From contig JBPOIL010000010.1 in assembly GCA_052034495.1 (NCBI GenBank), positions 14,457 through 78,456 on the forward strand: 64,000 nt of DNA, read 5' to 3'. How positions within the stretch are numbered: position 1 is the first letter of the stretch; every line of letters starts with the position of its first letter. The translations under genes were made by a program, and so were the position numbers. The notes under the pieces are model-generated. The model was not told the DNA's origin. It saw nothing but the letters and a program-made list of their open reading frames with translations, and did not search any database. This document shows, piece by piece, positions 3,563 to 53,887 of this stretch. The stretch comes from Patescibacteria group bacterium (GTDB lineage Bacteria > Patescibacteriota > Saccharimonadia > CAILAD01 > JADZBC01).

Positions 3563-3703
3563 TAGCTTATTATAGGCTCTCCTGGCGCACTGTGCTAGAT
3601 GATTTATGCATGATTCACCCTCATGTTAGTCTCCATTATAGCACAGCCGTACAATAATTACAAGACTTGTCAAATATAACCATTTTGCCTACCATTAGGT
3701 GGT

Positions 3704-5458
3704 ATGAAGAACTTATTTAAACTCTACAAATATCTCGATAACTATTTTTGGAAACTGCTGGGAGTAATCCTCGTCAGTACTCTTGTTGCCGTCATGCAAT
3801 CAGTTATGCCACTCGTGGTAAAACAAATCATAACTGTTATAGGTAACTCTGCGGGGAGCAAATCTCTTACTCCACAAATTATATTCTGGCTTGCCGTAAT
3901 CCTCGCCGCAGGCCTCATAGGTAATATCGCTATGTTTTTCCAAGATAAATATCAGAATGTCCTTGGCGTAGAAGTAGCACACAAAGTACGTAATAAAGTG
4001 TTCCGAATCACACTTAGCCTCACCCCTTCCCATGTTGAGCATGAGGGGGCTGGAAAGATCATTCAGCGAATTAACGAAGGTGTCAGCCAATTCAGAAACT
4101 GGATAGGTACCGCGAGCTATGTGTTATCTAATGTCATTTTCGTCATTATCGCGTTTATCGTGATTTTCTCAAAGAGTCCCCTTTCTGCATTAATATTCTG
4201 TATAGTTTTTGCACCTATTCAAATCTATGTAATCGCAAAGAAGCTACGCCTAACAAGGCCAATGTACAAAAAATGGCAAGAAGCAGGAAGTCGCTCTATG
4301 GGCCTCTTGTCAGAAACGTTGTCCAATCTTGCCATGGTGCGCTCACTCTCGGCAGAAGATGCACTCCAAAAAAAATATAATAGCTACAATGAAGAAGTAT
4401 TTGGCCTTCAACTAGAAACAAATGTACTAGAGAGACGCTACAATACAGCACGAGACATATTGGGCCAAAGCTATCAGTTTCTGGCGATCGCGATCGCAAC
4501 TATATCCGCAGTTTATGGCAAACTCTCTCCCGCGGATATTTTTGTGTTTGCGTACTTTGCGTCCAATCTAACGAACTCTCTCAATCCAATCGCAAGAATC
4601 GTTCAGACCACAACTGAAGCCGATGTTGCAGCTGGTCGTCTGATTGAATTCTTAGAAACAAAGCCCGCCATCATTGATAAGTCGGATGCGCTCCCCCTTG
4701 TACGGCTAGAAAGCATTGAGTTCAAGAATGTGAGCTTCACATACCCTGATAGTAAAAAGAACAAGGGGGCTATAAAAAACATTGGATTCAAAATCGAAGG
4801 AAATAAAACTTTAGCATTGGTGGGCCCTAGCGGCACAGGTAAATCTACAATCACTAAGCTATTGCTTCGCTTCTTTGAACCTACTGAAGGCCAGATACTG
4901 ATAAACGGTCAGAGCATTAGTACTTTTACACAAGACTCCATTCGACAACATATTGGCATGGTTATGCAAGACGTAGCGCTATTCAACACCACGATTGATG
5001 AGAATCTTGGAATGGCGAATGCTCGTGCCGACAAGGCTGCGATTGTACAAGCCGCTAAACAGGCACATGCCGACGAGTTCATCCAAGATTTGCCAAAGAA
5101 GTACAAAACCCTGGTTGGCGAACGTGGTGTAAAACTCTCTGGTGGCCAAAAGCAGCGTGTAGCGATTGCTCGAGCAATCCTAAAGGACCCACAGCTTATC
5201 ATCCTAGACGAAGCTACGAGCGCGCTAGACAGTGAATCTGAGCGCTTAGTACAAGATGGGCTTAAGAAGCTCATGACTGGCCGAAGCGCGCTCGTTATCG
5301 CCCACCGCTTAAGTACTATTATGCACGCTGATGAGATCCTGGTGCTCAAAAACGGGAAGGTTGCTGAACGAGGCACCCACAGCGAACTGATCAATCAAAC
5401 CGGCCTGTACAAGAAGCTCTTTAACCTCCAGTCCTCAAGCGGTAAAGTTAAGCTTTAA
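3704..5458 (+). CDS. ABC transporter, fused permease/ATP-binding protein (MsbA/exporter type)
   Basis: Six transmembrane helices, then Walker A GPSGTGKST, ABC signature LSGGQKQRVAIARA and Walker B ILDEATSALD. Confidence 0.85.
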   Translation: MKNLFKLYKYLDNYFWKLLGVILVSTLVAVMQSVMPLVVKQIITVIGNSAGSKSLTPQIIFWLAVILAAGLIGNIAMFFQDKYQNVLGVEVAHKVRNKVFRITLSLTPSHVEHEGAGKIIQRINEGVSQFRNWIGTASYVLSNVIFVIIAFIVIFSKSPLSALIFCIVFAPIQIYVIAKKLRLTRPMYKKWQEAGSRSMGLLSETLSNLAMVRSLSAEDALQKKYNSYNEEVFGLQLETNVLERRYNTARDILGQSYQFLAIAIATISAVYGKLSPADIFVFAYFASNLTNSLNPIARIVQTTTEADVAAGRLIEFLETKPAIIDKSDALPLVRLESIEFKNVSFTYPDSKKNKGAIKNIGFKIEGNKTLALVGPSGTGKSTITKLLLRFFEPTEGQILINGQSISTFTQDSIRQHIGMVMQDVALFNTTIDENLGMANARADKAAIVQAAKQAHADEFIQDLPKKYKTLVGERGVKLSGGQKQRVAIARAILKDPQLIILDEATSALDSESERLVQDGLKKLMTGRSALVIAHRLSTIMHADEILVLKNGKVAERGTHSELINQTGLYKKLFNLQSSSGKVKL

Positions 5459-13273: not shown

Positions 13274-13387
13274 GAGAATCCTTTGAGATTCACTATAATA
13301 GCAATTTTTGAGTGATTTGTCAATACTAGCACAAGCTTTTTACAGGTATACAGGTCTGTGGCCCGGGGACGAATCCCCGGGCCACGG

Positions 13388-13666
13388 TCACAACTTCTTT
13401 ACAACGCGCTCGGCAATCGGGCCCAATGCCCAGAAGATCGCACAGCTGGCGAGAAGCCAAACTGCGGTGGGATGGAACCCGGCGAGGAGAATGGCGGGGA
13501 TCGTGCCCGCAATCAGGCTCGTCAGCAACCGCCCGACCAGAATCAAACGCTTCTGCGCGCCCTGGTCTGGCCAACTGGGATCCTCCTTCCCAGATTCGCC
13601 GCTCCAGCCTGGAATTTGGCTTTCGTTCACGTCACGCTCCTTTGTAGCGTAGAGTTGTGCTTTCAA
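13388..13666 (-). CDS. Small membrane protein (two predicted transmembrane helices) in a high-GC islet
   Basis: High-GC ORF. A GC hairpin gcccgggga-cgaat-tccccgggc (13358-13383) follows the stop. Possible GTG start preceded by AAAGGAG. Confidence 0.35.
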   Translation of the reverse strand: MKAQLYATKERDVNESQIPGWSGESGKEDPSWPDQGAQKRLILVGRLLTSLIAGTIPAILLAGFHPTAVWLLASCAIFWALGPIAERVVKKL

Positions 13667-14114
13667 AGTCCCTTGCGAACCTGCGCGAATTTTACGCCTA
13701 GATGGTCAGAATAACAAGCCGCCATGCCATAAGCTCATTGACTTTTAGCCTCAACTTTGCTAGTATTTATAGCCCTGTCCGCTTTATGCAAGTTCAAAAG
13801 GATGTACAAACGTGCATTGCACGCATAGCCCATGTAAACTCACCTGCCCAGCGGTTCAGTCCGTCCTGGAATGGATCAAGCACATGCTCGACATGTTCGG
13901 GAACATCATGCTCAGTGGCGTAGAAACCCTGTGCGAAGACCTTCACCGACTCCCCCTCTGCACCCGCTAAGGGGCCAAGTCGCAAAGCGGATGGCGGTGT
14001 TCGAGGCCTCGCGGCCTCGGATGCCCATCCCAGCTATTATCCCACTCTCTTTACAGGAGAGCCCAGTTACGCTATAATAAGCGCTGTTTTAATTGATTCT
14101 AAGAAAGAGACTAC

Positions 14115-15523: not shown

Positions 15524-16006
15524 TCAGGTATAGAGTTTGGCAATCTTCTCAATGATCTGGGTTGTCGACACCTCTTCACTAAAACGAGGAATTGCCACGA
15601 GCTGAGTGCCCTGAGCATTAAGCCACTCTTCGTCTTCGAACCAGGCCGGATGCTCTTGACCAAAGACAAAAAAGTCAGGTTTTAGATCTTTAAGCAGTTT
15701 GTGCCCACGAATGGCAAGGTTCGGGGTGTGGCTCGGGGCAATAAATACATAGTCAACGCCGCCTAGTCCGTCCACAATAGCCGCCCGCTGTTCTTGAGGA
15801 ATTATTGGTCGCTTTTCCCCCTTCCTAGCTCTTGCCCTGTCATCCGGGGTAATGCCAATAACTACAATTTCCCCCTGTGACTTCAAGTGTTTTACTAGGT
15901 CGAGGTGGCCGATATGAAAGAGGTCAAATACACCGCCCGAATATGCGATAGTCTGGCCTTCGTGCTTCTTGCGGATATCTGGAAGGTCTTCTAGCGGTAT
16001 GATCAT
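15524..16006 (-). CDS. Cytidylyltransferase-like nucleotidyltransferase (glycerol-3-phosphate cytidylyltransferase / RfaE domain-II type)
   Basis: HIGH-type nucleotidyltransferase motif GGVFDLFHIGHLDLV. Length 160 aa. Confidence 0.75.
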   Translation of the reverse strand: MIIPLEDLPDIRKKHEGQTIAYSGGVFDLFHIGHLDLVKHLKSQGEIVVIGITPDDRARARKGEKRPIIPQEQRAAIVDGLGGVDYVFIAPSHTPNLAIRGHKLLKDLKPDFFVFGQEHPAWFEDEEWLNAQGTQLVAIPRFSEEVSTTQIIEKIAKLYT

Positions 16007-16030
16007 GTGACCATTCTACACTGTACTGGG

Positions 16031-16096
16031 AAATAAAAAAGGACCCTGCCGGCCGGCTCGCCTCCCGAAGGGTTTGAGCCAGCCAACCGAGTCGTC
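16031..16096 (-). repeat. Copy A of a ~65-bp conserved palindromic repeat (terminator-like or attC-like)
   Basis: gaAATAAAAAAGGACCCtGCcGGCCGGCTC-gcctcccgaagggttt-GAGCCaGCCAaCCGAGTCGTCA. Lies immediately 3' of the minus-strand ORF 16095..16487. The stem is imperfect. Confidence 0.7.
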
Positions 16097-16487
16097 AGTG
16101 GCACATGCGAGCATGACGCCTGGCCTCCTTGCGCGAGAAGCCATGCTCCATGTAATACTTGCGCGAGTCTCGCCGACGCCGCGAGCGCTCGAAGTCCTTG
16201 TGGACACCCGGCAAGAGACGCTCCGCCCCCATCTCACTGGAATAGTTCTGGCAAAAGTTAGCCAGGCACCTCAGAGGACTCTTCAGCCTTATGAGCACCA
16301 GTAGCAGTATGAGCACGGTGGCCGCACCACGCCACAACAAGACCAGCTTGAGCACGAACCACAACAGGCCGACGAAGACCAGAAGAGGGCCCATGCTCCA
16401 AGTCACCAAGCTGGCAAGCAAGCAGAAGCCTGCGAGCAAGATGGTAACGAACCCCAACTGCTGCCTCGTCATGGGATCTTGCGGCAA
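16095..16487 (-). CDS. Hypothetical membrane protein: three predicted transmembrane helices and an Arg-rich C-terminal tail. High GC.
   Basis: TTG or internal ATG start (MTRQQLGFVTILLAGF...). Three hydrophobic helices, then ERSRRRRDSRKYYMEHGFSRKEARRHARMCH. Confidence 0.4.
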   Translation of the reverse strand: MPQDPMTRQQLGFVTILLAGFCLLASLVTWSMGPLLVFVGLLWFVLKLVLLWRGAATVLILLLVLIRLKSPLRCLANFCQNYSSEMGAERLLPGVHKDFERSRRRRDSRKYYMEHGFSRKEARRHARMCH

Positions 16488-16631
16488 CCACCAGCGGATT
16501 GCCGCGCGGGCATGCTGACGGACGGTCAGCGACGTATCGAGGTCAGTGGTGATCTCGGTGGTATTTCCTCCTTATGAGGTACGGGTGGACACACAAAGTA
16601 TGCTACTACGCATGGATAATTTCAACCCCTT

Positions 16632-16699
16632 GAAATAAAAAGGACCCCGCTGGCCGGCTCGCCTCCCGAAGGATTTGAGCCGGCCAGCCGAGTCGTCAC
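16632..16699 (-). repeat. Copy B of the ~65-bp palindromic repeat (perfect 12-bp stem)
   Basis: GAAATAAAAAGGACCCC-GCTGGCCGGCTC-gcctcccgaaggattt-GAGCCGGCCAGC-CGAGTCGTCA. On the minus strand it reads as hairpin, then GGGGTCC, then TTTTTATTTC. Confidence 0.75.
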
Positions 16700-16947
16700 G
16701 CGCGAAGTTCGAGCTCCCTCTCGGTTCCATCAGCCGCCCGAACAATGATGACACCCCCCTCCAGGGCACCACACTCGACGAGCCATCCAAGCGTCTGGAG
16801 GGAAGACCTCAAGACCCAACTTGTATTCACGCCGAATCTGTCTTTGAGTCCTTCGAGGATGGCTTTCTCCTCGCGATTGACCCTGACCTGCAAGGTTTCC
16901 TCGCGGGACTGTGTACTGGACAAACTGAGCACCTGACGATCTGCCAC
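16696..16947 (-). CDS. Ribbon-helix-helix-like small protein, paralog A (~83 aa). It is the 3' part of the annotated 228-aa ORF.
   Basis: A GTG start is preceded by AAGGAGG plus 8 nt. Sequence ADRQVLSLSSTQSREETLQVRVNREEKAILEGL...VIIVRAADGTERELELRA is homologous to ORF 17620..17868. The upstream 140 codons of the table ORF are compositionally non-coding. Confidence 0.5.
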   Translation of the reverse strand: MADRQVLSLSSTQSREETLQVRVNREEKAILEGLKDRFGVNTSWVLRSSLQTLGWLVECGALEGGVIIVRAADGTERELELRA

Positions 16948-17491
16948 AACAACTACCTCCTTATTGGGTGCGGTGAAAACCGCTAGTATGGGGCTTTCTA
17001 ACCTAGACTTCAAGTCCAAAAACGAAAGAAGCCCCAGCCGGCCCCGCCCTTCCACCCGCCGAAGCGTGGTGGTTGGTACGGGACCGGCCGAAGCCGACGT
17101 GCGGTTGGCATGGCATGCATACTTCCCCGCGGGATGTCGCTGTCGCTGTGAGCTGAAGGCTGTGAGCCGACTGCCGATGGCGATGCGCAGGCTCCTGTGA
17201 CCCTGGGCAGGGGGCCGTAGACACACTCGAGCGCTCGAGTCAGGAGCTTTGCCTGCTCCAACCGTACCTCTAGTTCCCAGCTCTCGCCAAGGAGATTCGG
17301 CCTGCCTACGTATCAACCTACGTGGTGATCCGTGGATCTTTCCACTCCACCGTTCTGCGCAAGGCATCGGGTTTGGGGTCAATTCTCGTCTTTCCGAGCC
17401 GGCAACGGTCTCTCCCGTTCGTTTTTTAGATAGAAGGGGTTACGATCCCCACGTGATGGCGTCCGGCTTTTTGTTTTGCGGGACAAAAAAT

Positions 17492-17519
17492 ATTATACCA
17501 AACTTACCCAATGTGTCAA
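17492..17519 (-). promoter_or_regulatory. Consensus sigma-70 promoter (TTGACA-N16-TATAAT) reading toward RHH paralog A
   Basis: The minus strand reads TTGACAcattgggtaagtttggTATAAT, immediately downstream of repeat copy C. A ~500-nt high-GC leader follows. Confidence 0.6.
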
Positions 17520-17527
17520 TAGGGCGA

Positions 17528-17593
17528 GAATAAAAAGGACCCCGCTGGCCGGCTCGCCTCCCGGAGGATTTGAGCCAGCCAGCCGAGTCGCCA
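17528..17593 (-). repeat. Copy C of the ~65-bp palindromic repeat
   Basis: GAGAATAAAAAGGACCCC-GCTGGCCGGCTC-gcctcccggaggattt-GAGCCaGCCAGC-CGAGTCGCCA. Lies immediately 3' of ORF 17620..17868. Confidence 0.75.
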
Positions 17594-17619
17594 ACGGCTG
17601 CAAGCACCGCAAGAGAACG

Positions 17620-17868
17620 CTACAGCAAGACATGAACGCGTTCAGTCGAACCATCTGCCCTACGGATAAATAGCTCACCGCCCTTGTCTTTCACCTCCTC
17701 CAGGTACCATAGGTACATCTTCATCGCATCATTGGTCAAGGCGGCAAGAGATCTTTCCATATCTGTCGACCGCTCTCTCAGCCTGGTGGCCGTAGCCGGA
17801 TTGAGACTCAGTGACATCTTCACAGCCGGCACCGCATCAGTCCTGGGCATTGCGCACCTACCTTGCAT
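17620..17868 (-). CDS. Ribbon-helix-helix-like small protein, paralog B
   Basis: ...KMSLSLNPATATRLRERSTDMERSLAALTNDAMKMYLWYLEE...FIRRADGSTERVHVLL shows the beta-strand/helix/helix pattern of CopG/Arc-type folds. The C-terminal RADG(S)TER motif is shared with paralog A. An upstream promoter TTGAAA-N17-TATAGT lies at ~17880-17915. Confidence 0.5.
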   Translation of the reverse strand: MQGRCAMPRTDAVPAVKMSLSLNPATATRLRERSTDMERSLAALTNDAMKMYLWYLEEVKDKGGELFIRRADGSTERVHVLL

Positions 17869-17923
17869 TAGGGATTACGGATGATTACGATACTATAACA
17901 CTATAGTTAATACTTTTCAATAG

Positions 17924-18799
17924 CTACTTTAGTATCTGGCACCTGGGGCAAATATGCGTGCCGCGGCCAGCTACGCGAATCTTCTCTATTACACTGCCGC
18001 ACACGGGGCACTGCTGGCCCTCACGGCGGAACACCTGTGCGAACTTTAGGTAGCTCCCCTTATTTCCATCCGCATCCACATAGTTCTTGTCACTTGAGCC
18101 GCCGTGGTCAATCGAAAGCTGCAGAAAGTACTTGATAGCCTCGTGCAGCTTAGCGATCTTAGCCGGGGACACGTCCCCTACTTTTGTAGCCGGATGAATC
18201 TTAGCCATATGCAAGGACTCGTCAGCGTAAATGTTCCCCACGCCCGCCACGGTCGACTGATCAAGGATTGCGGCTTTGATTGTAGTCCTGGTTCGCCGCG
18301 CCAAGCGCTTACGGAACTCAGCCAACGTAAAGTCAGGCCCTAACGGCTCAGGACCCACACGTTTGAAGAAGTCAATTTCTGGCACCTCGACCGTCGGGTA
18401 GAGCTTAACCCAGCCAAACTTGCGCTGGTCGTTAAAGTACAGCTTGTCGCCATTCGTAAATTCGAGAGTAGCTCGAGTAGACCTGTCAGGCAGCTCACCT
18501 ATCAAGCTGTCGTTGGGGTGCCCAGCCCCCCAACGCTCACCATCTCCCGCTCTATATACCAACTGGCCTGTCATCTTTAGGTGAATGACCAGAGTGTACT
18601 CACTGTTCAGATCAATGAGTAAAACTTTTGCTCGCCGGCGCACACCGAGAATTTTTGAACCAATAAGATACATATTTACCTGTACGGGGTCGTTAGGGAA
18701 ACTTTTTGGCCAATCAAAATCAACCGACTCGATGGTTTTTCCTGGCAAGTATTTGTTAAGGCCTATTCGTACTGTCTCTACCTCTGGTAACTCCGGCAT
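17924..18799 (-). CDS. fpg: Formamidopyrimidine-DNA glycosylase (Fpg/Nei family)
   Basis: N-terminal MPELPEVE with catalytic Pro2, and a C-terminal zinc finger CPVCGSVIEKIRVAGRGTHICPRC. Confidence 0.85.
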   Translation of the reverse strand: MPELPEVETVRIGLNKYLPGKTIESVDFDWPKSFPNDPVQVNMYLIGSKILGVRRRAKVLLIDLNSEYTLVIHLKMTGQLVYRAGDGERWGAGHPNDSLIGELPDRSTRATLEFTNGDKLYFNDQRKFGWVKLYPTVEVPEIDFFKRVGPEPLGPDFTLAEFRKRLARRTRTTIKAAILDQSTVAGVGNIYADESLHMAKIHPATKVGDVSPAKIAKLHEAIKYFLQLSIDHGGSSDKNYVDADGNKGSYLKFAQVFRREGQQCPVCGSVIEKIRVAGRGTHICPRCQILK

Positions 18800-18866: not shown

Positions 18867-19688
18867 CTAAGAAAGATCCCCATTAAACCTCCTGTCCTCA
18901 CCGTAGCCAACAAAAGTTCGCGTTCTATCCCCTGTTTCTGGGTCTGATACCCACTCATATTGCTTCGTGAGACGACTCGATATGAGATTACTACTTACTG
19001 AGACAATATAGTCGCGTAGCGACAACCCTGCTTGAGCAGCGGTTCTGTATGCCTTAAGAGGAACATCTTCGGGATACATAAGCACGCTCTTTGGATCAAC
19101 AAAAGCATCGCACAACACCCTCACAGCCTCTGCCCTGATTTGTCGGTCGTCCGCAACAGGACCAAGCCTTTCTCGTGCTAACTTCTCTAGGAAATGGGAG
19201 GGCAAGGCACTACCGATATCGATGCTAGCACGCCCGTCCAGCACCTCTTCCATATGCTTTTGAAGAAAGCCACCGCCCACCGCCATATTAACGTACATAA
19301 AACGAGAAACCCGACCATTGCCATCGGCAAAAGGATGAATCTGATTTATGCCCGCTGATACTAGTAAGGCTGCGTCCTGGATATCTGGAACCTTTTGCGC
19401 AGCAGCGTGTAGATGCTCGAGCAGCTCCAACTTATCAGCTTCATCTGGTGGCCGGTGTTCAATTATTGGTCCGTCTGGAGCATCAAGATCGCCAACAATA
19501 ACCCCCTTTCCATCTAGGCCATGGAGTGCTGGGTTTAAACCCCTTACTTTAGCATTAACCTTCACCAACAAACCCTTGAAGTCCTCAAAGGGGATGGCGT
19601 CAAATTTTTCCTTACGCTCAACTTCATCGCCATAAAGCGTCTTGGCGTCACGGCCGCTATCACGATTTTTCTCCAAAGTATTAGCCAC
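18867..19688 (-). CDS. Fic/DOC-family protein (AMPylation-type motif)
   Basis: Canonical Fic motif HPFADGNGRVSR. Its start overlaps the stop of the upstream HAD gene. Confidence 0.8.
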   Translation of the reverse strand: MANTLEKNRDSGRDAKTLYGDEVERKEKFDAIPFEDFKGLLVKVNAKVRGLNPALHGLDGKGVIVGDLDAPDGPIIEHRPPDEADKLELLEHLHAAAQKVPDIQDAALLVSAGINQIHPFADGNGRVSRFMYVNMAVGGGFLQKHMEEVLDGRASIDIGSALPSHFLEKLARERLGPVADDRQIRAEAVRVLCDAFVDPKSVLMYPEDVPLKAYRTAAQAGLSLRDYIVSVSSNLISSRLTKQYEWVSDPETGDRTRTFVGYGEDRRFNGDLS

Positions 19689-44510: not shown

Positions 44511-45281
44511 TTATGGGCGCAACGTACCAAAGAACACTTGCCAGGCGAGTGCTGATTTGGCAACTAGGCTAAGAATTATATACACGCGCTCACCATACAG
44601 GTAGTCCTTCCATTTTCCAACTTGCTTGTACTGCAGGAACATATTGATCGCAAAGATGTTAAAGAAGGCAAAGATCGAAACGTAAATCCAGTAAACAAAA
44701 GCGGGGATGTTGCCACTGCCGTAGGTGTTGCTCGCCCAGAATGAAGTAGCAACGATTATCCATGGAACTATGCCGGCAATACAACCAACGACGAAACTAA
44801 CCCACTTAGTCTTTTCTGTAGTCTGATTGTGAATCTCCATCACCAAGCCCATCAGATTCATGACCGCGACAAGCGCAAATATACCGATTAAAAGCGAGAG
44901 GTCGTATATGCCGACCAGGAGCGAAATAGCCACCATCATGGTGCTAGCAGATAACGAGTATTCGATCCAGCGAGCTCGGTTGATACCTTTGCCAAGGTCC
45001 TTGTTATAACGCTTATTGTAAACCGTAGCGATTATCAGGTGCGCCAATGATGACATTACCAGGAACGCAACCACGAGGTATGCTAGCGGGACATCAAAGA
45101 GGGTCTTTGTAGCAGACTCTAAGTTTTGAGTCTGCCGGTTGAAAGATAGGAAGCTCGTGGTAACAGGCAGTAAAAACTCTTTGCTCAAGAGCAAGATAGC
45201 CAAGGCCTGGACCGCGTGCAACGCAGCCATTTTAAAGTTAAATGATCTCAGCCCTGCTTTCGTAATCTTTTTTCGAGCCAC
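44511..45281 (-). CDS. Heliorhodopsin
   Basis: Seven transmembrane helices. Strong similarity to heliorhodopsin 48C12 in RWIEYSLSASTM, VGCIAGIVPW and YLYGERVYIILSLVAKSALAWQVFFGTL. The retinal Schiff-base Lys in LVAKSA is present. Confidence 0.85.
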   Translation of the reverse strand: MARKKITKAGLRSFNFKMAALHAVQALAILLLSKEFLLPVTTSFLSFNRQTQNLESATKTLFDVPLAYLVVAFLVMSSLAHLIIATVYNKRYNKDLGKGINRARWIEYSLSASTMMVAISLLVGIYDLSLLIGIFALVAVMNLMGLVMEIHNQTTEKTKWVSFVVGCIAGIVPWIIVATSFWASNTYGSGNIPAFVYWIYVSIFAFFNIFAINMFLQYKQVGKWKDYLYGERVYIILSLVAKSALAWQVFFGTLRP

Positions 45282-51364: not shown

Positions 51365-51550
51365 CCCGAATAGGAGAAGGCCCAGAGTCGAAACCCTGGG
51401 CCTTATTCACCCTCCTTCGATGCAGGTCTATGACCCGCTCAGATAGCCGTCGCTCGGCTAGCACACTATTCCCTTGTGCTAGGGTCGCTGCCATTATGTT
51501 GCCTGGCTGCAGCGAGGTGATTCTTCCGAATCTACCACGGGCCAAAGCCC

Positions 51551-51868
51551 TCAGAAGCGGCTGCTGCACTCCTTGGGGAGCATCAACACGTCGCCCTTGC
51601 TGAACTGCTCCTTGCCGTAGACCTCACTGCGCTGGATGATCAGCCGGCGCCACGCCTGGAGCGACTCGCGCCCCGGCTTGGTCGTCTTGGCGAACTCGTC
51701 CATCGTCAGCGGCGTCTGCAGCGTCACTGCCGCTTCGCAGCCGTAGCGGTCGTTCAGCGACTGGCCGTTGAGTGAGTGGCTCACGCCACCGCAGCCGGCC
51801 AGCACGAAGACGAGGAGGATTGCCGCAGTAACCGCGCGGCGCCGATGAGTGGTGATGTGTGTGTTCAT
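51551..51868 (-). CDS. LysM-like small lipoprotein, paralog 1 (high GC)
   Basis: Signal peptide with lipobox LAGC. C-terminal ...WRRLIIQRSEVYGKEQFSKGDVLMLPKEC resembles the end of a LysM motif. Paralogous to 57370..57678. Confidence 0.5.
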   Translation of the reverse strand: MNTHITTHRRRAVTAAILLVFVLAGCGGVSHSLNGQSLNDRYGCEAAVTLQTPLTMDEFAKTTKPGRESLQAWRRLIIQRSEVYGKEQFSKGDVLMLPKECSSRF

Positions 51869-53462
51869 CTCGCTACTGGCATTACCAGCAATGAGATGAA
51901 CACAACGCTCAACCGAATTTCAACTCCTGTTTCGCCATAACTTGGCTCATCGGTGCAGATCACTATCTGCAGACAGGGTCCCTCCAAGGAGCACGTCCTG
52001 CTCCCTGTAGGGATTTACGCATTGCCCGATCGGGCTTGAAGGCCACTTCGCGCTGGCCTGCTCTCTTTTTGTGGTCATGAGCTAGACCGTTGCGGTGCCT
52101 AGAAGGCTTCTTTTTCTCGCCAACTATACTTCTGTTGTCAGGCCGTCGCTACGGCCCCGAAGCTCCTACCGGCGGCGGCGTGGGTTCGGCGGACCGAACG
52201 CCTCGTCGTAGCTGATGGGGTCCCCCTTGAGGTCTTCCGGATCCTCATCCGTCTCCCAGCGCCCAAACAGGACATTGCGAGGATCGAACGATGCACCTTC
52301 ATGCTCTTCTGAACTACGTGGCATAACCGCCCCTTGCTACGGAGTTGCGATTCAACTCCCCGACGGGAGGCACCCGCCTCTTACCTCCGGCTGGGGAGTT
52401 GAATTGTTAAAGTCTGTAAAAGTTCTCTGATAGTTTCGTCATTTCTGACTCATCAGCTCGGACATACATCCGAGGACTATCTACTCACGAACCCTTAACG
52501 GGCTCGCGAGCGACCCTGGGGAGCCTCTGCACGACAGCGCAAAGTCTACAACCCAGGTAAGGTTTGCCTAGCTTCACTCGACCGAGTGACCTAGAGCGGC
52601 TTACCTTCTGCCGCGGCGTGATTGCGTTCGCCTTAGAGGGCATACCGGTTTTCAGGCCGTGTATGTCCGGGGTAGCGAAACGCACTTTTAGCTAGTGGAG
52701 TTAACCCCGGATCACTTGTTGGTCTCCCACCACTCTCGTGGTCGCGCGTCCCGCTTGGGACTACACGTCGGGGTTTGTACCCGCAGGCTGATCCAATCTC
52801 CTCTCCTGTGCATACCCCTTTCTCCGCGCCGCGGAGGGTTTGGACGGGCCGCCCTCATCGCTCGATCGCGACATGCACTTTACTAGCATCGAACTGTGGC
52901 TGTGATTGGCGGGGATGCTTCCGCGCAATCACTTTGCTAAGGTCTATCCAGGTAAGCTGCGGGTAGCAACCTTACTGGACTCCTTGGCTTCTAGGTACTA
53001 CGTAGCTCTGGGAGGATCTGGTACCTCAACCGGAGCCGGGGTTGTCATGGCCGTGCTTTCGCTCGGCGCCCCTATTCCCTAAGGGCACGTGCCATACGCG
53101 CCCACTTTCGTCCACAATCCTCGCTCGCATAGGCTGGCAAGGAAACTCCCGAAGGAGCGCTGTCCGTGAACATTTGTTGGCCTCAACAGCCAGGGTGCTG
53201 GCGTCCTGTCATGCTTGGTGTAAATATTTACAGAACCCAGCGCCTTGACTGTCGATAACCTTTGACGTTTATTTTTTGAAGTTCTACGCGCTCTTCAGCT
53301 GCACTGTCGAGAATATTACACGGTTGTTTATTTTTTGTCAATACTTTTTGTCACTATATTGCAAACATTATGCAATATTATCTTGATCTAACCTGTAAAA
53401 TACTGTTGAACTTTCCAAACACTTAAGCATAAGCCTGTTGGGTACTTGTAGGTTTTTGTAAC

Positions 53463-53485
53463 AAAAAACGCCCTTAAGGGCGCTT
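53463..53485 (-). terminator. Intrinsic terminator on the minus strand
   Basis: The minus strand reads aagcgccctt-aagggcgttttttg. Confidence 0.55.
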
Positions 53486-53887
53486 AGAGTGAGAATGATA
53501 TCTGTGATGCCAGGGTGGCCGACCGATCCCTCGCGGGAAAGGCCGGCCACCCACGTGGCGCAGAGCTGTGTCGTTCGGCGCTGGACGCACCGGCGAGAAA
53601 GCTCTGTGAGCACGGAGGCTCGTAGTTCCGAGCAGTGGTTGCTCGATTGCGGCCTGGGCGCTGGGCCCTGGCTACATCCGGTGATGAGGACGATCACTCG
53701 CCCTCCTCCTGGTTGTTGTTGGCGGCTAGATGCCGCCACCGATGCGAGCGGTCATGGTAGACCTCCCTGTGTATGACGGGCTTGCGCCATCTCGAGACGA
53801 TCCCGAGATACGGCAGCTATGCACGCATCATGTGCACTGCCGTCAGTCAGTGTTGATAATAGCAGATTTAGCCATAATTGTCAAGCT

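Follow-up and report, generated by a model that had tools for sequence, protein, structure and literature searches.

Small transcription units sharing one terminator-like hairpin are reshuffled and exchanged between fpg and holA in Saccharibacteria

What is a palindromic repeat that closes several unrelated small genes in a row, and how do such genes come to lie side by side? The question is posed by an island on the minus strand of contig JBPOIL010000010.1, within a 64-kb stretch that we call the window, where the island separates fpg from a cytidylyltransferase/holA block. The host is a Saccharibacteria bacterium of the candidate phyla radiation (CPR), and the context of the island is chromosomal; the window encodes polA, dnaG, rpoD, fpg, holA, rpsT, truB, pnp and a heliorhodopsin. 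A first-pass annotation had read the island as three cassettes ending in near-identical ~65-bp repeats and had likened these repeats, hereafter T, to the attC sites of integrons. Cassette-like the island is: units at this one locus are combined and ordered differently among relatives and have been swapped across lineages. We count four of them, however, labelled B, X, A and M from the fpg side, with a layout of sigma-70-type promoter, Shine–Dalgarno sequence, small ORFan gene (or the RNA of unit X), stop codon and T. The promoters that had been attributed to the units are borne out, with one sigma-70-like promoter per unit scoring 9–12 of 12, one of them perfect; GC content is indeed raised, but modestly rather than markedly (53–58% against 51.4% for the window, an excess of 2–7 points). 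As to the repeat itself, T is probably an intrinsic terminator that insulates the units and holA, and T, the promoters and the flanking genes would together supply the homology through which units are turned over and imported.

T is a two-tier hairpin followed by a run of U. Repeat finding in the window returns one family with three 65-nt copies (16,033–16,097, 16,634–16,698 and 17,529–17,593; 89, 100 and 95% identity), and exact string mapping of T gives copies of ~66 nt each (Table 1). These palindromes, found as first annotated, are not a product of chance: a 32-nt core, searched with at most three mismatches, matches only three places in 64 kb (0.00 expected from shuffles), and a 26-nt core matches the same three sites only (0.00 expected). 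As RNA of the coding strand, T pairs over 5 bp and, beyond a 1×1 mismatch, over another 12 bp; a 3×3 internal loop then leads to an inner stem of 3 bp with a UUCG or UCCG loop, and C-U5-6-AUU comes after the hairpin. The z-scores of the minimum free energies (MFE) of the window copies run from −3.6 to −5.4. The stop codon of a unit lies 0–30 nt upstream of the hairpin or overlaps T, and the stop codons of three unrelated genes fall within its first bases. T therefore has the features of a Rho-independent terminator, namely a GC-rich hairpin, a U-run directly behind it, a place at the 3′ end of the unit and the transcribed strand, and from these features we infer that it terminates transcription in vivo.

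Folding of both strands, a check proposed with the initial annotation, favours the coding strand throughout. Across 15 copies of T from at least 10 genomes, the coding-strand RNA reaches −32.8 to −41.9 kcal/mol and the complement −19.4 to −34.6 kcal/mol, and the complement is 7–14 kcal/mol weaker in every copy, because each stem variant, whether C>U or A>G, leaves a G-U pair on the coding strand and an A·C mismatch on the other. The copy behind M in the window has three such G-U pairs, on the coding strand only. Two further variants alter the fold: in locus L006, the copy behind A has UCCC-AA-GGGA in place of the inner CC-UUCG-GG, and the copy in L014 has gained extra pairs in the internal loop. 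To judge by these sequences, the variant pattern is that of selection on an RNA hairpin, as in an intrinsic terminator, and unlike that of a folded bottom-strand DNA site.

T also lacks the marks of an integron site. The attC boxes (RYYYAAC and GTTRRRY), sought by regular expression on both strands of 15,900–18,000 and in each T copy, give 0 matches (8 chance matches occur elsewhere in the window). The fold contains no extrahelical bases, only a symmetric 1×1 mismatch, and favours the wrong strand. Integron cassettes are mostly promoterless and driven by Pc, whereas the units here carry their own promoters. No integrase or transposase was matched in Pfam among the ~45 open reading frames (ORFs) of the window, and the genes of related loci include no integrase, transposase or REP-associated tyrosine transposase (RAYT). 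With no R′′/R′ boxes or extrahelical bases in T and no integrase among the genes scanned, membership of T in the family of integrons or clusters of attC sites lacking integrases (CALIN) is not supported, and neither is the mechanism first proposed for the island.

The conservation of T is as striking as its fold. Its 53-nt hairpin core differs at no more than four positions among the compared copies, L017 included and the A copy of L006 (inner loop replaced) set apart, and is ~92–100% identical, with the same exception, where flanking synonymous sites are saturated. The repeat is thus far better conserved than either cargo or flanks, as the annotation had held for the cargo. An nhmmer search over 186 kb (the window and related loci) places every T in the fpg–holA gap and in one orientation, that of fpg and holA. 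Confined in this way over the sequence searched, T is not an ordinary genome-wide terminator, and with three copies in 64 kb it shows no dispersal of the type seen for repetitive extragenic palindromes (REP) or miniature inverted-repeat transposable elements (MITE). Among 185,579 GTDB species representatives, a single one, a Candidatus Saccharibacteria metagenome-assembled genome, carries T, in one copy, by a search pattern that misses the GAGCT variant. Scans of IMG/VR for T and for an invariant motif of X gave 0 matches, as did scans of JGI metagenome contigs that included a gapped pattern allowing any inner loop; the latter collection evidently lacks these genomes, although JGI samples are the origin of some of the loci. 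At gathering scores, Rfam 15 reports only a tRNA-Ser in the window, and at E ≤ 10 nothing credible in the island, with no family for T. Four independent short-read contigs (L001, L004, L007 and L008) end inside T, as expected of a repeat or of strain heterogeneity; assemblers break at T, and such arrays will therefore be under-represented or fragmented in metagenome assemblies.

Exact-protein look-ups of the homologs of M, A and B retrieved 19 related loci (denoted L and a number), and all 19 lie between fpg and holA. This gap is hypervariable, with ~8 array types of 1 to 6 units built from the same modules in differing order and number (Table 1). B stands before M in the window and after it in L005, and X adjoins either A or M. 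Two array types, L003 and L019, come from one metagenome, and L005 and L006 have near-identical holA genes beside very different arrays.

Two cassettes have moved between lineages. The synonymous divergence (dS) of fpg and holA is 0.5–0.9 between most lineages but, in comparisons with L006, exceeds 1.4 or is saturated, and holA protein identity is 70–72% against L006 and L017. Between the window and L003, dS is 0.057 for B and 0.49 for fpg; between the window and L006, it is 0.47 for A and 1.6 or more, or saturated, for the flanks. B and A are far less diverged than their flanks, which indicates that both have been exchanged. M gives no exchange signal, with dS similar to that of the flanks.

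The edges of the exchanged segments point to where crossovers fall. The window and L003 share a tract of at least 95% identity that starts ~40 nt inside fpg, and the C terminus of Fpg co-varies with the neighbouring cassette (...QILK* beside B, ...QKLG* or ...QKLK* beside M or X); since both travel with the cassette, crossovers probably occur in flanking homology. In L006, a 497-aa glycosyltransferase-like gene sits in the 3′ end of fpg, which has a new C terminus (...CQKPARA*), and a ~45-nt duplicate of the old fpg end lies just before the X promoter. This scar resembles the homology-facilitated illegitimate recombination that de Vries and Wackernagel reportedly described in 2002. Inside the array, the junctions of modules in the ~8 array types all fall either at the boundary of U-run and −35 box or where the fpg stop codon is followed by a −35 box. 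The −35 box (TTGAAA or TTGACA) lies 5–25 nt after T, and the promoters and 5′ untranslated regions of M, A and a 162-aa cassette are homologous (GGnTTGAAAT-N17-CATACT ... TAAGGAGG). T followed by homologous promoters means that conserved terminator–promoter blocks of ~100 nt separate the cassettes, and one such block, T-P2 (T and GCACTTATGATTGTATTTTAAGGTGAAAAATGGTATAAAT), is identical between M and B in L005 and between A and the 696-aa gene in L006. Variants of T itself are also distributed across cargo: the L005/L006 lineage has the same C>T variant in all five of its T copies irrespective of cargo, variable sites 20 and 48 occur in all four allele combinations, and some but not all M cassettes have an 'M-type' 3′ arm. 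These sequence patterns fit crossovers or conversion within T; recurrent transitions at sites that tolerate G-U are an alternative.

On the reading that we consider probable, the fpg–holA gap would be a hyperplastic hotspot filled with autonomous transcription units. Acting as RNA and independently of Rho, T would end each unit and keep read-through out of the unit behind it and, at the end of the array, out of the essential holA, and with the following promoter (GGnTTGAAAT-N17-CATACT or the alternative P2) it would form the ~100-nt block between cassettes. All cassettes have these blocks in common, and fpg and holA are conserved; blocks and flanking genes alike could therefore serve as homology for RecA-type recombination, either within one chromosome, where units would be deleted, duplicated or reordered, or with DNA taken up from related lineages, an import proposed because Saccharibacteria are naturally competent (documented in PMC10633639 / PMC10187176). 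Occasional illegitimate joins would bring in new cargo, and repeated crossovers and conversion inside T would keep it near-identical across cassettes and lineages. From the patterns above we infer that RecA and transformation would provide the route and that homogenisation would explain why T is conserved.

Several points weigh against this account. The conservation of T exceeds, as far as the sequences tell, what a terminator needs, and sequence-specific recognition by a protein would account for it equally well. The left boundaries of M and X are precise to 2–3 nt in three independent contexts and a 7-bp repeat, CTATTGA, brackets B, both of which would also be expected from a site-specific or transpositional mechanism. 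A homology of 65–110 nt is short for efficient RecA recombination. The sample comprises ~10 lineages; copies of T were searched for in the window, the related loci and the GTDB representatives; the pattern used for the GTDB scan misses a GAGCT variant; and the recombinase search extended over the ~45 window ORFs and the called genes of related loci. Further copies of T, or a trans-acting recombinase, may lie elsewhere in the genomes.

The same observations can be turned towards a dedicated recombinase encoded elsewhere, for which T would be the site and terminator activity secondary; an integron-like enzyme, another tyrosine or a serine recombinase, or a hairpin-recognising HUH enzyme would then insert and excise cassettes site-specifically. 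Such an enzyme would explain why T, its loops included, is so extremely conserved across unrelated cargo and distant lineages, why all copies share a single locus and orientation, why stop codons of three unrelated genes lie in its first bases, and why module boundaries are precise and a 7-bp direct repeat surrounds B; the ORFan and ribbon-helix-helix (RHH)-like cargo is also that of integron arrays. Yet T has no R′′/R′ boxes or extrahelical bases, its pairing is kept on the coding strand only, as G-U, with A·C mismatches on the complement, and its arms stand 16–19 nt apart where a tyrosine recombinase has a core of 6–8 nt. No integrase, transposase or RAYT was seen in the genes scanned, the cassettes bring their own promoters, and tracts into fpg with a 45-nt fpg duplication are unlike precise site-specific exchange. 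We regard a recombinase site as distinctly unlikely. The same low odds apply to its boldest form, in which T would be the attachment site of an undescribed CPR cassette-capture system, a functional analogue of the integron, with X a new RNA mobilised by it; if true, a trans-encoded enzyme would read the two-tier hairpin, as DNA or in the transcript, and insert promoter-bearing cassettes of ORFans or non-coding RNA at one hotspot. Somewhat less unlikely, though still the weaker case beside the terminator-homology reading, is that T is kept for an RNA function beyond termination, as a binding site for a regulator or RNase or as a 3′ stabiliser, and is not itself a recombination substrate, so that the array would vary purely as a minimal mobile element, through recombination in the flanking genes and illegitimate joins. 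The strand-specific, RNA-type signature of T agrees with this, as do the tracts into fpg, the illegitimate-join scar in L006 and the ultra-conserved M leader, whose compensatory hairpin change suggests post-transcriptional control. Exchange through the flanks alone, however, could not reorder units inside the array (M precedes B in L005 and follows it in the window, and X adjoins A or M), and it leaves aside the lineage-specific variant in all five T copies whatever their cargo, the identical T-P2 block between different gene pairs and the inner loop that was replaced in L006 while the element was retained.

Two further explanations are weaker still. As the decayed remnant of an integrated prophage, plasmid or integrative and conjugative element with its own repeated terminator, it would owe to that element its GC content 2–7 points above the genome, its ORFans and small RHH-like regulators and the weak Arc-like PHROG match of B. 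We hold this to be very improbable: there is no integrase, no att-like direct repeat at the ends and no phage or plasmid gene, BLAST of the island against 50,697 phage and 72,556 plasmid records yields no DNA match, nor does IMG/VR hold one, and the 1 to 6 units in varied orders are not nested deletions of one element. If a segment with its terminator had simply been duplicated in tandem in this genome, and nothing were mobile, three direct copies within 1.6 kb could result; but the copies enclose unrelated genes (a membrane protein and RHH-like proteins), other lineages have the units singly and in different order, and cargo divergence is decoupled from flank divergence. On the comparative sequence data local duplication is already contradicted, and we give it next to no credence. 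The annotation's fallback, a duplicated foreign terminator, had rightly named the nature of the element and missed the dynamics of the cassettes.

What the cassettes carry appears, from substitution patterns, to be real ORFan genes under purifying selection (dN/dS 0.10–0.29 overall). M, A and B each form 2–4 sequence clusters among 5.8–15 billion proteins. For M, there are three clusters among 5.8 billion proteins and one remote homolog, and a profile search against 1.84 billion representatives likewise returns a single remote homolog, located at the same locus; its dN/dS is 0.17–0.29. A has two clusters among 5.8 billion proteins (dN/dS 0.12) and B three. No significant match bears on function in Pfam, PHROGs or PADLOC, and sequence searches of the PDB were empty. 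The C-terminal motif said to be shared by A and B is real and limited to a GG-x-hhhR-x-DG-(S)TER stretch (BLASTP E=7e-4), and their assignment as RHH proteins keeps a slender footing in Pfam RHH_1 (E=0.026) for A and an Arc-like PHROG (E=0.043) for B. An AlphaFold2 monomer model of B (pLDDT 68.7, pTM 0.33) was too poor for a fold search. The near-perfect promoter that had been assigned to A heads unit X instead, and A has the weaker P_A.

Translation of M could start at TTG 16,487 or ATG 16,472. Its leader (~60 nt, within 16,473–16,590) is nearly invariant even against L017 (6,080–6,150), where the M protein is 37% identical, and in L014 the leader hairpin has a compensatory A>G / U>C change. 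The leader contains a perfect TAAGGAGG motif with no canonical in-frame start codon after it. In L016, CAA replaces the in-frame TAA of the leader, and gene callers extend the ORF upstream.

Unit X is an independent module in three lineages, standing between fpg and M in L014, before A in L006 and between B and A in the window. RNAalifold on the three homologs gives 138 pairs, with 96.6% of pair cells paired. Double (compensatory) changes affect 10 pairs, against 5.1 ± 1.5 in shuffles and 0–3 with slid partners. Among them are a paired double deletion, a GC>UA change in a GAAAGA-capped hairpin and three changes within a single helix; some of the other double changes sit in a 5′ segment that is non-homologous in the window and are to be discounted. 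X has an MFE z-score of −1.98 and matches no Rfam family. A protein-coding role was considered and rejected: pN/pS is 0.5–1.0 in every frame, conserved stretches carry 1-nt indels, and in the L006 copy the longest ORF has a premature stop. X is a candidate structured non-coding RNA of ~470 nt, predicted from three sequences, which are too few for proof. The window copy differs in its 5′ ~60 nt, which include an antisense terminator-like hairpin (17,404–17,425, plus strand), and the L006 copy has a 45-nt CTTCGG-rich insertion.

Table 1. Features of the island and of related loci. Positions refer to the window unless a locus is named; arrays are listed from fpg to holA.
Feature	Position	Strand	Description
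Island	16,016–17,923	−	between fpg and the cytidylyltransferase/holA block
T, copy 1	16,030–16,097	−	terminator of unit M; first triplet is the TGA stop of the gene; MFE −33.1 kcal/mol
Gene M	16,095–16,487	−	125–130-aa membrane protein, Arg-rich C-terminal tail
M leader and P_M region	16,473–16,625	−	TAAGGAGG motif at 16,560–16,574; hairpin GCUGAC-CGUCC-GUCAGC at 16,514–16,530
P_M	16,597–16,625	−	promoter, TTGAAA-17-CATACT
T, copy 2	16,632–16,698	−	terminator of unit A; first triplet is the TGA stop of the gene; MFE −42.2 kcal/mol
Gene A	16,696–16,947	−	83-aa RHH-like protein; GTG start 8 nt after AAGGAGG
P_A	16,985–17,013	−	promoter, TTGAAG-17-CATACT; homolog of P_M and of the 162-aa cassette promoter in L006
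Unit X	17,009–17,522	−	~500-nt unit without a convincing ORF; predicted transcript of ~470 nt ending in T'
T'	17,018–17,095	−	diverged two-tier hairpin and U-run, architecture as in T
X promoter	17,519..17,492	−	perfect sigma-70 promoter, TTGACA-16-TGnTATAAT, 12/12
T, copy 3	17,528–17,593	−	terminator of unit B; MFE −41.5 kcal/mol
Gene B	17,620–17,850	−	76-aa RHH-like protein
P_B	17,892–17,920	−	promoter, TTGAAA-17-TATAGT; abuts the fpg stop codon
P_B and fpg end	17,892–17,965	−	P_B and the last ~40 nt of fpg, travelling with cassette B
X homolog, L014	5,327–5,852		
X homolog, L006	5,370–5,930		
fpg scar, L006	3,790–3,830 and 5,310–5,365		497-aa gene inserted at the 3′ end of fpg; ~45-nt fpg remnant ahead of the X promoter
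HAD–fpg variable gap, L003	1,650–2,230		
HAD–fpg variable gap, L006	1,860–2,917		
HAD–fpg variable gap, L014	3,386–4,451		
HAD–fpg variable gap, L017	3,308–5,073		
Array, window			fpg, B, X, A, M, cytidylyltransferase, holA
Array, L002 and L019			fpg, M, cytidylyltransferase, holA
Array, L003 and L004			fpg, B, methyltransferase-like, holA
Array, L005			..., M, B, holA
Array, L006 and L007			fpg, 497-aa glycosyltransferase-like, fpg remnant, X, A, 696-aa, 162-aa, holA
Array, L010–13 and L016			fpg, M, holA (downstream end of L016 outside coverage)
Array, L014 and L015			fpg, X, M, holA
Array, L017			fpg, T' remnant, M' (37% identical), holA

The neighbourhood of the array varies as well. The cytidylyltransferase gene (15,524–16,006) has host-like GC (49%) and no T after it; the window, L002 and L019 have it, L005, L006, L010–15 and L017 lack it, and in L003 a SAM-methyltransferase-like gene (3,597–4,148) takes its place. 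On the other side of fpg, the gap towards a HAD hydrolase gene is likewise variable, with a Fic-domain gene in the window (18,867–19,688) and, in relatives, GC-rich opposite-strand ORFans of 69–76 aa (membrane), 132 aa and 222 aa. A second T-like repeat was sought in this gap and none was found.

Elsewhere in the window, a second GC-rich stretch (57–63%) of ~2.3 kb, at 51,450–53,850, is almost free of ORFs. A candidate type III hammerhead ribozyme at 52,428–52,482 on the minus strand matches RF00008 with 43.5 bits, against a gathering score of 48.5 (E ~1e-7), and has an intact catalytic core (CUGAUGAG...CGAAAC...GUC). An ORF-poor segment of 750 nt (13,300–14,050), with GC up to 58%, lies between a DHH-family gene and rpsT at a position conserved in relatives; it has no Rfam match at E ≤ 0.05 and may contain an unrecognised RNA gene. 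The heliorhodopsin gene (44,511–45,281; Pfam E=9e-99), set among small membrane ORFs, suggests that the lineage lives in a light-exposed, non-oral environment.

CPR genomes are tiny, and how they acquire and turn over genes is poorly understood. The locus described here has a compact 'plug-in' design of promoter, gene and shared terminator, in which ORFans and a candidate RNA are swapped within and between lineages without visible mobile-element machinery. We found no account in the literature of such a shuffled, terminator-sharing array for Saccharibacteria. If the shared blocks do act as recombination handles, the principle of two systems compared below, the promoter-early stem-loop (PeSL) cassettes of phages and the minimal mobile elements (MMEs) of Neisseria, would extend to a cellular CPR chromosome. 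In practical terms, the fpg–holA gap, T and the promoters would give Saccharibacteria genetics a site where insertions are naturally tolerated and a chassis for expression. The locus also counsels caution, as integron-like anatomy, with same-orientation cassettes that have conserved palindromic ends, can come from terminators.

The closest likeness is to the PeSL cassettes of T4-type phages, whose blocks recombine, so that ORFans are reshuffled and mini-circles can arise (Arbiol et al. 2010, PMC2839356). There too, a strong sigma-70 promoter and a terminator stem-loop with G-T/G-U pairs together form conserved blocks of ~100 nt, which lie between ORFans in hyperplastic regions and mark the places where relatives differ in gene content, and homologous recombination between blocks is proposed to carry promoter and terminator along with the gene. 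The array described here differs in belonging to a CPR cellular chromosome, at a single locus between housekeeping genes and without viral matches, whereas PeSL elements reside in phage genomes; in having 1–6 copies per genome against ~50; and in a stem-loop that precedes the promoter, is much longer (18 bp and an inner hairpin) and is far more conserved in sequence.

The MMEs of Neisseria are alternative genes at syntenic sites, exchanged by transformation and flanking homology (Saunders & Snyder 2002, as cited in PMC1797815). As far as that citation describes them, they share with the fpg–holA gap the alternative small gene sets between conserved genes and the lack of mobility genes; the tracts that reach into fpg, and the competence of the host phylum known from the literature, may point to a similar route of exchange. 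MMEs as described there have no shared internal delimiting repeat, whereas here a common terminator closes each unit, and reshuffling takes place within the array. Phage morons are independent units with their own promoter and factor-independent terminator, inserted between genes that are adjacent in relatives (PMC3594210), and resemble the present units in these respects and in deviant GC; the units here lie outside phage, several in tandem, with one terminator sequence throughout.

In an attC site the bottom strand folds, with extrahelical bases and a central spacer left unpaired, and the recombinogenic strand is favoured (PMC2727003). Integron and CALIN cassettes are likewise small, mostly ORFan and uniformly oriented, with an imperfect palindrome at the 3′ end that holds stop codons, and their repeat can be more conserved than the cargo, as in the VCRs of Vibrio. 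T differs by the absence of core boxes and extrahelical bases, a coding-strand RNA fold with a U-run, cassette promoters and the lack of an IntI among the genes scanned. The likeness to the pdif modules of Acinetobacter plasmids is one of layout, in that discrete modules with copies of one short conserved site at their bounds turn up in different contexts, while the recombinase genes lie elsewhere. XerC and XerD act on pdif sites of 28 bp with 11-6-11 architecture; in T the arms stand 16–19 nt apart, the sequence is GC-rich and a U-run is present. The array is best classed with the recombination-handle systems, PeSL, MME and moron-like, and not with integrons. What is new is a single-locus array with a near-invariant terminator, reshuffled and horizontally exchanged in a CPR chromosome: an ordinary part in an unusual use.

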